The notes under the pieces: model-generated
Databases searched by the model: none
Seen by the model: only the letters and a program-made list of their open reading frames with translations
Told to the model about the DNA's origin: nothing
DNA from: a virus
Lineage: Duplodnaviria; Heunggongvirae; Uroviricota; Caudoviricetes
Length of the DNA: 4,386 nucleotides
IMG/VR virus record: IMGVR_UViG_2711768010_000004
Coordinates: 1-4,386 of that record
Direction: 5' to 3' (one strand)
Shown here: positions 1 through 4,386 of the stretch, piece after piece
Numbering within the stretch: position 1 is the first letter of the stretch
How the letters are laid out: every line of letters begins with the position of its first letter
Program-made: the position numbers and the translations under genes

Positions 1-60
1 CTCTCGTCTGGGGAATATCTCCCCGGCAGCCTTCAGGGAAAAATATCATCAGATGGCTGC

Positions 61-414
61 TTAAAAAAAGAACAAATGGTAGTGTCCGCTATTGCCAGTA
101 CACCTCAATTGCTCTGCGGCTTCGCTCAGAGCTGGCGTATGTTCCCGGCCTACTGATTCACACAGGTAATCAACGAAACCGGACACCAGTTTTCGTTCGC
201 GAGGCGTGATCGCCCCACCGACCGGAGTCCAGTAATCGAAACCCAGTTGCAGGAGTTTGAAAAAACGCTTGTGGAATGCGTAGTTACACACACGCTTAAA
301 GTCTGCGTGTATCCACTCACCTATTTTGATTTGATGCAGAAAATCGCAACTCTCCGGCGTCGCCGGGAGAAGTAATCCGGAAGAGGTTTGTTTGACCAGT
401 TGTATATGTGCCAT
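61..414 (-). CDS. Hypothetical prophage protein, 117 aa (MAHIQLVKQTSSG...HYHLFFF)
   Basis: Track ORF 61..456 begins at a TTG (454-456) that overlaps the upstream stop. An in-frame ATG at 412-414 is preceded by GGAGA with a 6-nt spacer, so I place the start there. No family recognised. Confidence 0.45.
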   Translation of the reverse strand: MAHIQLVKQTSSGLLLPATPESCDFLHQIKIGEWIHADFKRVCNYAFHKRFFKLLQLGFDYWTPVGGAITPRERKLVSGFVDYLCESVGREHTPALSEAAEQLRCTGNSGHYHLFFF

Positions 415-452
415 CGGCTTTCTCCGGTGGCACGGTGTTACACAGCAGGAGT

Positions 453-740
453 TCAATCCTGCTCAAGATTGTAGATGAGTTTATTCTTCAGCAAAAGCAG
501 AAAACCAGCCTTAAAACCAATCTCTTTCAAAACCCGTAATGATGTGACAAATTCGTCCTCACGCAAAATAAAACCGTCCGTCAGAAGTCCATTACAAAAA
601 TAAAATAACACAGCACCGCTCTTCCTTTGTTGAGATTGCAAACATCTAATGCGGCAATGGCTGACAATCGCTCCATTCTCAACGCGCACAGCATAGAGGC
701 CATTTTCACTAAAAATTTCACGCAATTCTTCGATTTTCAT
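453..740 (-). CDS. Hypothetical prophage protein, 95 aa (MKIEELREIFSENGLYAVRVENG...)
   Basis: ATG start at 738-740 and TGA stop at 453-455. Weak GGA-type RBS about 8 nt upstream. Sits downstream of a predicted promoter and the hok terminator. No family recognised. Confidence 0.45.
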   Translation of the reverse strand: MKIEELREIFSENGLYAVRVENGAIVSHCRIRCLQSQQRKSGAVLFYFCNGLLTDGFILREDEFVTSLRVLKEIGFKAGFLLLLKNKLIYNLEQD

Positions 741-821
741 CTTCAGAATCCTTCCAGATAAATAGCTCTCCCCTGTTCGGGGTCCATCCCTCTTCTCCCT
801 GCGCGCTACTTAAGTGAGTCG

Positions 822-849
822 ATTCTATCTGCGAAGGTGCGCGAATCAA
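822..849 (-). promoter_or_regulatory. Candidate sigma70 promoter for the two small downstream ORFs
   Basis: Minus strand reads TTGATT (plus 844-849), a 16-nt spacer, then TAGAAT (plus 822-827). It lies just 3' of the hok terminator and about 80 nt upstream of the ATG at 740. Sequence match only. Confidence 0.3.
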
Positions 850-857
850 ATTCACCG

Positions 858-914
858 GAAATAAACAACAAAAAACCCGCCGAAACGCTGAGAGATCACA
901 GCGATGGGCGGGTT
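858..914 (-). terminator. Rho-independent terminator ending the hok transcript
   Basis: Outer stem 874-881 pairs with 907-914 (AACCCGCC/GGCGGGTT). Inner stem 886-890 pairs with 899-903 (CGCTG/CAGCG). On the minus strand this is followed by TTTTGTTGTTTATTT. Confidence 0.45.
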
Positions 915-953
915 AAGTGCGGGTGCGTTGAGGATGCCTGACACATCAGAGGT

Positions 954-981
954 GGGCGGGGATGGGATCAGCTCCCCGCCC
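954..981 (-). promoter_or_regulatory. Stable stem-loop in the hok 3' UTR (possible fold-back/stability element)
   Basis: Perfect 9-bp inverted repeat GGGCGGGGA (954-962) and TCCCCGCCC (973-981) with a 10-nt loop, starting 9 nt after the hok stop. No U-run follows, so it is not itself a terminator. Hok-family mRNAs are known to carry structured 3' ends. Confidence 0.4.
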
Positions 982-989
982 GGTCACTC

Positions 990-1145
990 TTACTTCCTGG
1001 ATTCGTAGTCTACGAAGACAGCGACCTCCGTCTGGCCGGTTCGGATTCGTACCTCACAGAGGTCTTTCCTCGTTACCAGTGCCGTCACTATGACGGTTAA
1101 ACAGATGACGATCAGGGCGATTAACATCGCCTTTTGCTGCTTCAT
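990..1145 (-). CDS. hok: Hok/Gef-family small membrane toxin, 51 aa (MKQQKAMLIALIVICLTVIVTALVTRKDLCEVRIRTGQTEVAVFVDYESRK)
   Basis: ATG at 1143-1145 preceded by AAGGAG, TAA stop at 990-992. The translation is nearly identical over most of its length to chromosomal HokD/Gef as I recall them, with a hydrophobic transmembrane core and the conserved RKDLCEV motif. In the track it is fused to the upstream gene only because of read-through across the N run. Confidence 0.9.
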   Translation of the reverse strand: MKQQKAMLIALIVICLTVIVTALVTRKDLCEVRIRTGQTEVAVFVDYESRK

Positions 1146-1167
1146 AGCCTGCTTCTCCTTGCCTTTC

Positions 1168-1208
1168 NNNNNNNNNNNNNNNNNNNNNNNNNNNNNNNNN
1201 NNNNNNNN
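1168..1208. other. Assembly gap (41 N)
   Basis: Run of n characters. It hides the stop of the QueH-like gene and the hok leader region where mok and sok would lie. Confidence 0.99.
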
Positions 1209-1853
1209 GATAAGAGGGCGTCCCTGAGATTTGCGGTGTAGATTGGTATCGCGCAGAGAATACACACAGCCACAATATTCCTGCTGATAGAATTTTTCGC
1301 GCTTGCTGATTTCAATCATACGGGACGAGCCGCCCTGCTTGCGCCAGTTATAATCCCAGTACACCATGCCCGGATAATGCGCGACGGCTCGCCGCCCACA
1401 GTCGTTAACCTGCTGCATATTTTTCCAGCGTGAAATGCCCAGTGAACTGCTGATCACACTGAAACCATTTTCAGCGGCGTACAGCGCTGTCCGCTCAAAA
1501 CGCATGTCAAAACACATGGTGCAACGGATCCCTCGTTCGGGCTCCCATTCCATTCCTTTGGCTCGTTCAAACCAGTTGTCTGTGTCGTAATCAGCATCAA
1601 TAAACGGCACGCCGTGTTGTTCAGCAAAGCGAATATTCTCATCCTTACGAATTAAATACTCTTTCTGAGGATGAATGTTCGGGTTGTAGAAAAAGATGGT
1701 GTAGTCGATTCCCGAGGCCTGAAGCGCCTCCATCACCTCACCGGAACATGGAGCACAGCAAGAGTGCAGTAGTAGTTTGTTTGCCCCGTTTGGGAGCTCC
1801 AATTTGGGCCGTTTGAAATCAGCAACTGTCATAAATATGTTTATTGGGGTCAT
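1209..1853 (-). CDS. queH: QueH-like epoxyqueuosine reductase homolog (DUF208), 3' end incomplete in gap
   Basis: The translation carries the DUF208/QueH signature cysteines: HSCCAPC, RCTMC and YCGCVYS. At least 215 codons are visible, consistent with the usual QueH length. ATG at 1851-1853 (alternative ATG at 1830-1832); neither has a strong Shine-Dalgarno. Confidence 0.8.
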
Positions 1854-2000
1854 AAAAATATCAAAGAGTGTAGCATTAGAACGGGGCTATCGGAAACAGA
1901 TGTGTGACTGCTCCCCGCCCTTTCGGGTGGTCTCCTGATGATTTGAGGGTGCAGAAATCCCTCCGGTTAAGGATTAAATTTTTAACAGTGCTAAATTTAA

Positions 2001-2357
2001 TTATTCAGTTCTGGATTTTGTCGCCCTGCGTATCCGCGCTTTCGCGTTACGCTCAATCTGTATCAGCTTTTCTATATTTCTCCGCCTTTCCTGTTCCTCC
2101 TGGCGCAATAGCCTTACATCATCTGCCAGTCTGGTTTCTCTTTTTGCCACAGAGAGCATCCAGTCAAACGGCTCCACAACCGCACCGCAGATTTTACAGC
2201 GGACCTGACGCTCTTTTTCGTCAACCCGTACAGAGGCGTGATGGCAATATGGTCTTTCCGATGGCTCATAAAGAAAATTAACCTGATTACGAGGGTCATC
2301 CTCTTTTACCGGAAATAAAACGATATTGCTTAACTCATCTTCTGGTTTTATTTCCAT
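2001..2357 (-). CDS. Hypothetical Zn-ribbon protein with basic coiled-coil C-terminus, 118 aa
   Basis: ATG at 2355-2357 preceded by AAGGAGAGG, TAA stop at 2001-2003. Carries a C-H-H...C-x-x-C cluster (PYCHHASVRVDEKERQVRCKICG) and a K/R/E-rich tail. An alternative ATG at 2412-2414 abuts the upstream stop as TGAATG and would add 19 residues. Confidence 0.55.
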   Translation of the reverse strand: MEIKPEDELSNIVLFPVKEDDPRNQVNFLYEPSERPYCHHASVRVDEKERQVRCKICGAVVEPFDWMLSVAKRETRLADDVRLLRQEEQERRRNIEKLIQIERNAKARIRRATKSRTE

Positions 2358-2414
2358 GCTCCTCTCCTTTGATGCGAATGCCAGCGGTAATTGAAGCCTG
2401 ATAGCTAATTTCAT

Positions 2415-2837
2415 TCACAGTATCGCCTCCTGAAAATTACCCTGATAGAAAGCCAGTACACGCTGCATAGCTTCGCTCTTCCGGCACTCGCGACAGATTA
2501 TATTCAGGCGCCTGTCGTAGCGGCGTATTTCTCCGTCAGGTAATGACCAGATAAGGTCCGGATCAACAACAACCGGTTTCCTCACCTTTACTCTCGAGAG
2601 TTTTTTGCGGGCGCTTTGCCAGTCCTTGCGAGCCTGTTCAGACGGGAATAAGCCGTAGCCAGAATTATATACATCACCACTTGCGACCAGTTCTATGCAT
2701 AAGCGACCGACAGACGCACGACTGATACCTGTTTCATCTGACAACTGCCGAATCGTGACCCGACCGTCCTGATGCACGAGTTCCACAATTCGCGTCTTCA
2801 GTTCTTCCCGCTGTTCGGGAGTAAAAGGTTTCGCCAT
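2415..2837 (-). CDS. Winged-helix (HTH) DNA-binding protein, 140 aa, unknown function
   Basis: ATG at 2835-2837 is preceded by AGGAGG in the 14-nt gap after the DnaC-like stop. The N-terminal segment VTIRQLSDETGISRASVGRLCIELVASGDV looks like a winged-HTH. Stop at 2415-2417. Confidence 0.65.
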   Translation of the reverse strand: MAKPFTPEQREELKTRIVELVHQDGRVTIRQLSDETGISRASVGRLCIELVASGDVYNSGYGLFPSEQARKDWQSARKKLSRVKVRKPVVVDPDLIWSLPDGEIRRYDRRLNIICRECRKSEAMQRVLAFYQGNFQEAIL

Positions 2838-2851
2838 AAATCCTCCTGAAA

Positions 2852-3598
2852 CTACTTAACAACCCTCGAATGGCTAACATTCGGACGCCAGCTCTCCCAG
2901 TTAAAATTCACCCAGCGCCCGCCGTTCATGACCATGCGATCCATCACCCGCTCGCCGAGCAATGTTTTCATCACCTCATAGTTCAGGTTTGTCAGCATCC
3001 CCACGCTGCGCATCGACGCTGTCCGGCGATCAACAATCTGGTGCAGCACCACCTGCTCGTTTTTCGTCTCGCGCTGAATGCCAATTTCATCAAGAACCAG
3101 CAGATCCACTTCGCACAGCTCCCGCAAAAATTTTTCGCCTGACTGCCCGTCGTCATAGCTGGCGTGCAGGGCGCTCATAACATCAGCCACGGTAACCACA
3201 ATCACTGTCTGACCGTCTTTCAGCAGGCGATTCCCGATAGCTGCCGCTAAGTGATTCTTCCCGGTACCAGGTTTTCCGCTGAACGCAAAATTTGTACACC
3301 CGGTCATCAGTTCATCGGCGATGGATTTCGCCTGGCTTAACGCGTATCGCTGGCCGTCGTTCTGCACCTGGTAATTCGCAAACGAGCATTTACGGTGCAA
3401 CGGCTGGATGCCTGAGCGATTCAGAATTTTTTCCACCCGCAACTGGCGATTCAGGCGGTTGATCTCCTCGCTACGTTTCTGGCCTTCAGCAAGTTGCCAC
3501 TCGCGCCACTCCGCTACCGTTCTGAATGGGGCGGTTACATGTGGCGGGGTCAGTCGGCGGATGCGTTCCAGAACGCCGCCTGTCGCAATATTTTTCAT
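2852..3598 (-). CDS. DnaC-like AAA+ helicase loader / replication protein (YdaV-like), 248 aa
   Basis: Walker A (SGKPGTGKNHLA) and Walker B (LLVLDEIG) motifs are visible. I recall the sequence as very close to the Rac prophage YdaV replication protein. ATG at 3596-3598 lies 6 nt after the upstream gene's stop. Confidence 0.9.
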   Translation of the reverse strand: MKNIATGGVLERIRRLTPPHVTAPFRTVAEWREWQLAEGQKRSEEINRLNRQLRVEKILNRSGIQPLHRKCSFANYQVQNDGQRYALSQAKSIADELMTGCTNFAFSGKPGTGKNHLAAAIGNRLLKDGQTVIVVTVADVMSALHASYDDGQSGEKFLRELCEVDLLVLDEIGIQRETKNEQVVLHQIVDRRTASMRSVGMLTNLNYEVMKTLLGERVMDRMVMNGGRWVNFNWESWRPNVSHSRVVK

Positions 3599-3953
3599 GG
3601 TCCGTTACCCCCTGAAGCCTGGCGGGATCGCACTGTCCGGCAACGAGACGGTGTTAACCTGTCGGAGCAACGTCTCAGGCCGAACACCTTTCGGCGCGAA
3701 CAGGCCCTGGTATTCATTGGCGATGCTGTGTCGAATCACCTGCTCAGGTGTAAAACCCTGCTGACGGAATTTTTCCAGTTCCCGTATCGCCCCGTTAGCG
3801 CCCTGCTCCGTTCGAATCGGTTTTCGCAATGCCTGTCTGAACCGGACCCACTCATGCCAGAGTGTTTCCGGCAACCAATCGGGCAGCTCAATAGCCTCCG
3901 GCTCGAATTTTTTAGACGCTCGTTTTTGGCGAGGGGGAGATCAGTATTTAGAT

Positions 3954-3971
3954 CTTCCTCTTCCTCTTCCT
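3954..3971 (-). repeat. (CTTCCT)3 hexamer repeat encoding a six-glutamate acidic tract
   Basis: Three tandem CTTCCT units on the plus strand, read on the minus strand as GAG GAA x3 in the middle frame of the initiator gene. Confidence 0.8.
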
Positions 3972-3973
3972 CT

Positions 3974-4016
3974 GGTAACGCTTTTTGATCCGTTTGTGTA
4001 ACGCTGGCAGCGTTAC
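3974..4016. repeat. Iteron-like GTAACGCT 9-mers: one direct copy plus a 19-bp palindrome
   Basis: GGTAACGCT at 3974-3982. GTAACGCTG at 3998-4006 is mirrored by CAGCGTTAC at 4008-4016, giving the palindrome GTAACGCTG-G-CAGCGTTAC. Confidence 0.7.
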
Positions 4017-4281
4017 CTTTTCGTTTCAGTTCGCGTATTTTTGTTACTCGCTCGTTTGTAACCGCCCGTTTTTTTTAGAGCTTTTTCCGTTATGACGTTC
4101 AAAGTTAGGTAGAGAAAGCCCTCCGTCATTTTCGACCAGCCATCCAACCTGAATTAACGCATCAGCAAAACCAGACATAAAAGTGATGCGATCTATTGCA
4201 CTTTTTGTAACGCCGCGAGCGTTACAATCTGCATTACCGTCTATCATTTGTTGATCCGCCCATGCCCAGAAGCGAATAACC

Positions 4282-4386
4282 TGAGGTAGCCTGAGTTTAA
4301 CGGACACTCCTTCCTGAAATAGAATGGCATCAGAAGGAGCTAATAATGAGCAGAAAAACCCAACGTTACTCTAAAGAGTTCAAAGC
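4282..4386 (+). mobile_element. IS3-family insertion sequence, left end (IS600-like), partial
   Basis: A terminal TG at 4282 opens TGAGGTAGCCTGAGTTTAACGGACAC, an IS3-type inverted repeat. About 60 nt inside is an AGGAG RBS and an ORF opening MSRKTQRYSKEFK, which I recall as the IS600 OrfA N-terminus. The rest of the element is outside the window. Confidence 0.55.
4346..4386 (+). CDS. IS3-family transposase OrfA, N-terminal 13 codons only
   Basis: ATG at 4346 with AGGAG 7 nt upstream. The RYSKEFK motif is typical of the IS3-family OrfA HTH region. Truncated by the window edge. Confidence 0.5.
   Translation, partial: MSRKTQRYSKEFK

Follow-up and report, generated by a model that had tools for sequence, protein, structure and literature searches.

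A degraded lambdoid prophage carries a hok locus that is very probably a complete hok/mok/sok type I toxin-antitoxin module of the hokW-sokW subtype

We analysed a 4,386-nt stretch of viral DNA (positions 1 to 4,386 of IMG/VR record IMGVR_UViG_2711768010_000004; hereafter the window), which is a piece of a lambdoid prophage with all of its genes on the minus strand. The subject here is its hok toxin gene, whose upstream region is interrupted by a run of N. A first-pass annotation, made from the letters of the window alone, had placed a hok-family toxin locus with a structured 3' end at this position, with the mok and sok region hidden by the gap. The following elements of the locus, observed or predicted, fall within the window.

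1168-1208: run of 41 N, standing for 247 nt (L017 11755-12001, equal to L002 3969-4215; both sequences are introduced below)
1159-1164, plus strand: candidate -35 box of the sok promoter, TTGCCT, with a 17-nt spacer running into the gap and the -10 box, TAACCT, in the gap
1155-1160, minus strand: hok Shine-Dalgarno (SD) sequence AAGGAG, 9 nt before the ATG
990-1145, minus strand: hok coding sequence, 51 aa plus stop, MKQQKAMLIALIVICLTVIVTALVTRKDLCEVRIRTGQTEVAVFVDYESRK
954-981, minus strand: perfect 9-bp hairpin just past the hok stop, stem GGGCGGGGA/UCCCCGCCC at 973-981/954-962, 10-nt loop
934-946, minus strand: dcb-like box AUGUGU.AGGCAU, predicted partner the mok AUG region plus Sok target AUGCUU.GCACAU in the gap
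921-933, minus strand: fold-back inhibitory (fbi) element CCUCAA(C)GCACCC, predicted to pair with the mRNA 5' end GGGUGCUUGAGG (tac, in the gap) over 12 bp with one bulge
869-914, minus strand: intrinsic terminator of the hok mRNA, outer stem AACCCGCC/GGCGGGUU, inner stem CGCUG/CAGCG, then U6

The hok open reading frame (ORF) is intact and has a strong ribosome-binding site, and its assignment to the hok family was confirmed. Its product matched all 42 positions of Pfam HOK_GEF (PF01848), with E 4.3e-23 and 81 bits (cut-off 22), and the PHROG family 'MokW-like host killing' (3e-32). Among NCBIfam models, Hok and HokA gave sub-threshold matches only, the Hok subfamily model scoring 55 bits, under its 73-bit cut-off, and no HokD-specific model was matched. 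The protein shares 50/51 residues with HokW, 46/51 with HokD of Escherichia coli K-12 and 44% with Hok of plasmid R1, and the hok gene of R1 has the same AAGGAGAAG..ATG layout at its SD sequence. The coding sequence doubles as the 3' part of an in-frame mok, whose ATG lies in the gap. As a separate observation, the Tyr47 codon (UAC) stands within CUACGAA (window 1002-1008, minus strand), a sequence similar to the UACG motif at which TadA carries out A-to-I editing; by eye, the stem around it seems weak. In hokB such editing changes Tyr to Cys, and the same is reported for other hok mRNAs (bioRxiv 10.1101/2025.08.07.668861).

Downstream of hok, the visible 127-nt 3' region folded with z = -4.6, and both the perfect 9-bp stem-loop and the terminator that had been taken as the structured 3' end of a hok mRNA appeared in the fold of this region alone and in that of the full-length mRNA. 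The hairpin is kept in relatives despite changes on both sides of the stem, reading GGCGAGGGA/UCCCUCGCC in HannyBb and E. coli 042 and GGCGGGAGA/UCUCCCGCC in K56-43. By analogy with R1, its probable role is to protect the 3' terminus of the hok mRNA once this has been processed (truncated); in R1, substitutions that weakened the last stem-loop of this truncated form (Tr-hok) abolished toxicity, which was ascribed to greater susceptibility to 3'-5' exoRNases (PMC9841398). The terminator is a compound hairpin whose loop carries a 23-nt insertion in alignments with HannyBb, K-12 hokD and other relatives. A generic terminator scan returned 0 matches because this loop exceeds 8 nt. The fbi element, which the first-pass annotation had not named, was invariant in 8 aligned relatives. 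The box beside it is called dcb only provisionally, after its apparent counterpart in the R1 model (PMC9841398). The hok ORF with its 3' hairpin and terminator is real and not a product of chance.

The 5' half of the locus had to be read from public sequence. IMG/VR was searched for the exact terminator variant of this locus, which gave 26 prophage contigs. In a second collection (genome_contigs), scans for the IS600 junction and for the same terminator variant gave 0 matches, so the source genome is absent from it. Both flanks of the N run were present in 20 of them, 247 nt apart in 18 (including contig L017) and 261 nt apart in the other 2. The nearest complete genome, E. coli FDAARGOS_944 (L002), is 100% identical to the window on both sides of the gap and likewise has 247 nt in place of the 41 N, bringing the gap-filled set with window flanks to 21 sequences (20 IMG/VR contigs and FDAARGOS_944). 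The content of the fill is the same in all of them, save for one single-nucleotide polymorphism (L018) and a 14-nt tandem duplication (L021 and L033).

L017 is the sequence closest to the window itself. In comparisons of L002 and L017 through exact-pattern searches and alignment identities, L017 showed no difference from the window over 199 nt to the left of the gap and over 200 nt of a lineage-specific, degraded replication gene for which L002 had no match. It also carries both junctions of the window with the insertion sequence (IS) IS600 (copies at L017 7461-8617 and 13105-14261); of the two, the left one alone is found in L019 and the right one alone in L022 and L035. Once the 41 N are replaced by 247 nt, L017 is collinear with the window, and by these identities it can be treated as effectively the unmasked window.

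Since 247 and 41 differ by 206, which is indivisible by 3, the N run keeps neither length nor frame. This bears on a second ORF, at 1054..1275, that appears in the program-made ORF list and that the first-pass annotation had thought to be positioned like mok, with the warning that its start was unreliable across the N run. The warning was justified, and the part of this ORF upstream of the gap is meaningless because the 206-nt difference is not a multiple of 3. The assignment to mok had to be rejected: when filled, the frame reads ATG-TAG (...ATG TAG GTT AGC...), no ATG, GTG or TTG follows, and the real mok is in phase with hok.

The elements found or predicted in the fill are given below in L002 coordinates, where the hok sense is the minus strand; L017 is identical there.

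In the gap, hok strand: last 14 codons of queH, with the queH stop at L002 4176-4174
L002 4152-4123, hok strand: promoter-like site for hok, TTGATT-18-TAGAAT, with 6 nt between the -10 box and +1
From L002 4116, hok strand: predicted hok mRNA +1 and tac, GGGUGCUUGAGG, corresponding in alignments to the 5' end of both the Rfam model and the R1 hok mRNA (GGCGCUUGAGG)
Further along the hok strand, 5' to 3': metastable tac partner, ucb/anti-SD box GCCCCAG, Sok terminator hairpin region, mok SD (GAGG) and mok ATG
Opposite strand: sok -10 box and 71-nt Sok RNA

The gap therefore holds the mok and sok region that the first-pass annotation had supposed to be hidden there, including the mok start, the sok -10 box and the body of Sok. 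Rfam RF01794 ('sok', modelled on the hok-sense strand) matched L002 4116-3941 with 117 bits (gathering cut-off 59, E 9e-28) over the full model, 1-157, and the result for L017 was the same (117 bits). This model also matched hokW of phage 933W, HannyBb, PPompW gef, a Rac-like hok, K-12 hokC, R1-type hok and all 3 queH-hok loci examined (L005-L007), and gave no match on K-12 hokD. The mok ATG lies at L002 4003 with GAGG 8 nt upstream, and its frame, in phase with hok, would yield a 70-aa product consisting of MLCTCRLASYMPKGKEKQA followed by Hok. We read this as a mok frame overlapping hok, with an SD sequence placed under the control of both Sok and the anti-SD box. Together with it, the locus has the ORF of a predicted small membrane toxin of the Hok/Gef type and, as read from L017 and L002, the RF01794 leader.

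On the opposite strand, the Sok counterpart occupies L002 3995-4065 (plus strand), is 71 nt long and is identical to the annotated 71-nt sokW of 933W at 64/71 positions. It is predicted to fold into a long hairpin, preceded by a 5' tail of about 15 unpaired nt and followed by a U-tail. A sok promoter had been expected on the plus strand around 1150-1250; the -35 box was found there and the remainder lies in the gap. The -10 block of sok (TAGGTTAG, sense strand) is invariant among this locus, 933W and HannyBb. As deduced from primers YO-421/422, it appears to be the block that Takada et al. 2021 exchanged in their 'pro-less' sokW construct, which lost protection (PMC8621323). By homology to sokW, the locus appears to encode a Sok antisense RNA that is complementary to the mok start and has a promoter and a terminator of its own.

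The predicted hok mRNA of 446 nt folded at -189.6 kcal/mol against a shuffle mean of -137.9 (z = -8.4), and its centroid equals the minimum free energy (MFE) structure. In both, mRNA nt 1-12 (tac) pair with window 921-933 (fbi). The tac/fbi duplex reached -21.1 kcal/mol compared to -13.6 +/- 2.0 for shuffled 3' untranslated regions (UTRs), and 3/2000 shuffles were as good. In R1 hok the ends pair in a like manner through different, mutually complementary sequences, GGCGCUU/AAGCGCC. The full-length fold also pairs the mok SD region (GAGG) with GCCCCAG at nt 56-62 (the ucb/anti-SD box), the mok AUG and Sok-target region with window 934-946 (helices 114-119/377-382 and 121-126/370-375, the dcb-like pairing), and the hok AUG with hok codons 43-46, so that the mok and hok starts are both buried.

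Shorter RNAs folded differently. In nascent transcripts of 35-50 nt, tac formed a hairpin with the segment just downstream, a counterpart of the R1 metastable structure, and the first 70 nt formed a tac/ucb stem. The models thus predict an end lock between tac and fbi plus alternative tac hairpins. Truncation raised the mean unpaired probability of the mok and Sok-target region from 0.24 to 0.35, which is modest and not strong evidence. The 14-nt duplication noted above, AGGCTATCTGCTTC, lies at the 5' end of the hok mRNA, in the region of tac and the metastable hairpin (L021 5370-5670, L033 4267-4567), and should alter the refolding switch.

These predicted features match the published R1 model in each of its elements; in that model a tac/fbi-locked full-length mRNA is trimmed at its 3' end and refolds, after which hok is translated through coupling to mok, Sok binds and RNase III cleaves the duplex (PMC9841398). 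For the present locus our direct basis is sequence elements, homology and predicted pairings, and we infer transcript ends, processing, toxicity and role by homology to R1 hok/sok and hokW-sokW. On this basis, a weak promoter in the masked stretch would produce a hok mRNA of about 446 nt whose 5' end (tac) is clamped to fbi (921-933), with the mok SD held by the anti-SD box upstream of it and the mok and hok starts buried. Because of the clamp, the masked SD and the buried starts, we propose that the full-length RNA would be neither translated nor bound by Sok. Slow 3' trimming to the 9-bp hairpin (954-981) would strip off fbi, and the 5' end would then refold into the tac/ucb stem, exposing the mok SD and AUG. 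Ribosomes on mok, which here would be the hok frame and give the 70-aa extended product, would run on into Hok, a presumed small inner-membrane toxin. Sok, expected to be an abundant and unstable antisense RNA of 71 nt, would pair with the mok start region, block translation and trigger cleavage of the duplex. If Sok synthesis stopped, through loss of the element or shut-off of transcription, cells would be killed or lysed.

Taken together, the locus is very probably a complete hok/mok/sok type I TA module of the hokW-sokW (lambdoid prophage) subtype, situated in a prophage remnant. All known elements are intact, namely the promoters, tac, ucb, the mok SD and ATG, the hok SD and ORF, fbi and the terminator. 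Several points weigh against this reading. The decisive 5' half lies outside the sequenced part of the window and is taken from a public contig of the same lineage rather than from the source molecule. Agreement of the sok promoter with the sigma-70 consensus is poor (4/6 and 3/6), and a generic scan does not pick it up. When the RNA was trimmed to the 9-bp hairpin, the unconstrained MFE structure was the metastable tac hairpin and not the tac/ucb stem, which, when enforced, lay 2.7 kcal/mol above it. Because the tac and fbi columns are invariant among close relatives, these are uninformative about covariation, and covariation of the pairing comes only from the R1 comparison. Finally, the chromosomal hok loci tested so far (hokA/B/C) gave no post-segregational killing (bioRxiv 10.1101/2025.08.07.668861).

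The closest characterised system is hokW-mokW-sokW of the Stx2 phages 933W and Sp5 (Takada et al. 2021, PMC8621323; GenBank AF125520). Expression of HokW is toxic, sokW transcribed from its own promoter neutralises it, protection partly requires RNase III and Hfq, and the module contributes to lysis and phage release after mitomycin C (PMC8621323). Besides the near-identity of Hok and Sok, the two loci share an mRNA that is 91% identical from +1 to fbi, an in-frame mok of 70 aa, the sok -10 block, the tac and fbi sequences, and a lambdoid prophage setting. In 933W the mokW product is MLNTCRLASYVPKGKEKQA followed by HokW, and mokW and hokW share their stop codon. The differences are few. Hok here has E50R relative to HokW, and the seven changes relative to sokW all lie in the single-stranded 5' tail of Sok and are mirrored in the mRNA because Sok is cis-antisense. 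The hairpin after the stop has a larger loop here, and the 3' ends differ past fbi, where this locus has the terminator with the 23-nt loop insertion and 933W diverges. The positions differ as well: the present locus is in the nin region, between queH and the gene in the rem position, whereas hokW lies near the end of the 933W genome, by a YgiW-like gene.

Other hok systems resemble the locus in part. K-12 hokC(gef)/mokC/sokC likewise has mok in frame with hok and a shared stop codon, a similar leader peptide (MLNTCR... against MLCTCR...) and an RF01794 match of 118 bits; HokC is, however, a different paralogue, and IS186 follows immediately downstream in K-12. Plasmid R1 hok/mok/sok (parB), which scored 89 bits with RF01794, has the same layout: its ends pair through tac and fbi, an anti-SD box masks the mok SD (GAGG), Sok is complementary to the mok start, the hok SD is AAGGAG, and a hairpin and then a terminator stand at the 3' end. 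It differs in that its Hok is only 44% identical, its mok is out of frame and ends inside hok, and its tac and fbi sequences are different yet complementary; R1 hok/sok is plasmid-borne, with proven post-segregational killing. The frame relation of mok and hok is not conserved in the family, since it is in frame in this locus, 933W and K-12 hokC and out of frame in L009 (Rac-like phage MN652886), where a 1-nt insertion (AAAGG-T-CAAGG) just upstream of the hok SD shifts mok, which is annotated as ending inside hok, as in R1.

K-12 hokD (relF, in the Qin prophage) shares the same 3' UTR, including the terminator and an fbi box that is an orphan in hokD, and has an equivalent lambdoid prophage position upstream of rem/DUF1367-type genes. 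Its alignment with the present locus does not begin until AGGAGAAGCAGGCUAUG; the end of relE lies 71 nt upstream. Because relBE abuts hokD, the K-12 gene lacks the promoter, tac, ucb, the mok start and sok. A truncated hok of the hokD/relF type was considered for the present locus and rejected, as this lineage keeps the full leader.

The surrounding genes and IS600 ends in the window are as follows.

4283-4386: 5' start of a second IS600 copy, in the same orientation as the first
3605-4282, minus strand: replication-initiator-like gene, split into ORFs 3605-3874 and 4044-4307, its 5' end lost to IS600
2852-3598, minus strand: DnaC/IstB-like ATPase
2415-2837, minus strand: DUF977/Ren-like protein
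2001-2357, minus strand: zinc-ribbon protein
1209-1853, minus strand: queH (epoxyqueuosine reductase QueH; Pfam 1.6e-65, phrog_3217), C-terminus in the gap
453-740, minus strand: 95-aa phrog_340 protein, in the position of rem in K-12 Qin
61-414, minus strand: truncated DUF1367/NinB-like gene
1-107: 3' end of IS600

The prophage fragment (108-4282) thus has a direct IS600 copy on each side, and a remnant of about 4.4 kb stands between the two copies both in the window and in L017. IS600 cuts the DUF1367/NinB-like gene at position 108. The replication-initiator-like gene is intact in FDAARGOS_944 (L002 6612-7400, 789 nt). The prophage around hok is a decaying, heavily degraded remnant. Directly upstream of hok, queH is a queuosine-pathway gene carried by the phage; it ends in the gap 58 nt before the hok mRNA +1, and it is not part of the TA system. 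Its adjacency to hok recurs in several E. coli prophages (L005-L007). A second promoter-like site, TTGATT-16-TAGAAT (window 822-849, minus strand), has the same hexamers as the candidate hok promoter and lies just past the hok terminator, upstream of the 95-aa phrog_340 ORF (453-740).

We weighed three other accounts of the locus. It is extremely unlikely that hok here is a hokD-like orphan whose sok, mok and 5' regulatory RNA are gone and whose expression depends entirely on read-through from the gene upstream (queH here, relBE in K-12). RefSeq names an identical protein 'HokD', and in relatives the generic scan found no terminator between queH and hok, so that read-through from queH into hok could occur. 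The first-pass annotation had left open the choice between a complete TA and a hokD-like gene, and it is true that the window alone shows no sok or mok sequence and, because the leader is masked, no Rfam match at E<=1. Public sequence, however, settles the choice for a complete TA. All 21 of the gap-filled sequences with window flanks, including L017 with the same IS600 junctions, have the full leader, sok and a promoter between queH and hok, whereas K-12 hokD is homologous only from the hok SD and has no RF01794 match; the protein, too, is nearer to HokW than to HokD. We also considered that the true content of the gap might differ from that of the relatives, an IS insertion or rearrangement having broken both the assembly and the TA. 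The N run counts 41 and not 247, hence it is not a length-preserving mask, and the genome is IS-rich; in K-12, hok loci are often hit by IS elements, and IS186 adjoins hokC. After a simple insertion, however, relatives should have the two flanks side by side, whereas the window lacks 247 nt, and L017 has the plain 247-nt fill along with both IS600 junctions and the lineage-specific variants of the window. We regard this account as very unlikely.

The third account, which we hold to be possible but somewhat unlikely, accepts that the locus is complete in sequence and takes it to be a biologically silent passenger of the decaying prophage, with too little mRNA or too slow processing to kill, as reported for K-12-type chromosomal loci. 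The degradation of the prophage (two IS600 copies, a replication gene both split and cut, and a cut DUF1367 gene) and the absence of killing by chromosomal hokA/B/C, described above, are in its favour. Decay of such loci does occur, given the stop at hok codon 4 in E. coli APEC O1 and the 14-nt tac duplication in two contigs. Against silence stand the full set of known elements, all of them intact here, the unchanged sequence in about 20 contigs, and the activity of hokW-sokW, at 91% identity (PMC8621323). In the APEC O1 locus (L006), codon 4 has changed from CAA to TAA, and RefSeq annotates a shorter Hok/Gef protein from an internal start.

If the locus is, as we favour, a complete TA module, the phage-release role found for the Sp5 type is not directly applicable because no lysis genes lie within the IS600-bracketed fragment in the window or in L017. 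The roles that remain for it are stabilisation of the remnant (addiction), phage exclusion, or none. One quite unlikely extension is that hok/mok/sok explains why a 4.4-kb fragment with queH, hok/sok and a few replication and nin genes has survived while the rest of the prophage was lost, by serving as an addiction cassette that penalises IS-mediated deletion; on the same reading, the two IS600 copies and the DNA between them could transpose together as a composite element, taking along a TA and a queuosine-pathway gene.

The locus is of an already known kind, a prophage hok/sok of the subtype annotated in 933W and characterised experimentally in Sp5. Such prophage systems have been catalogued in surveys that found hok genes enriched in prophages (bioRxiv 10.1101/2025.08.07.668861), and the locus has little discovery value in itself. 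It does illustrate that an N run need not preserve length or reading frame, so that ORFs called across such runs are meaningless. The RefSeq label 'HokD' hides a retained antitoxin and regulatory RNA, unlike the situation in K-12 hokD. The locus looks like the intact form from which relBE truncated hokD in Qin, in agreement with what Pedersen and Gerdes reportedly described in 1999. Before its truncation, K-12 hokD probably resembled this intact locus.

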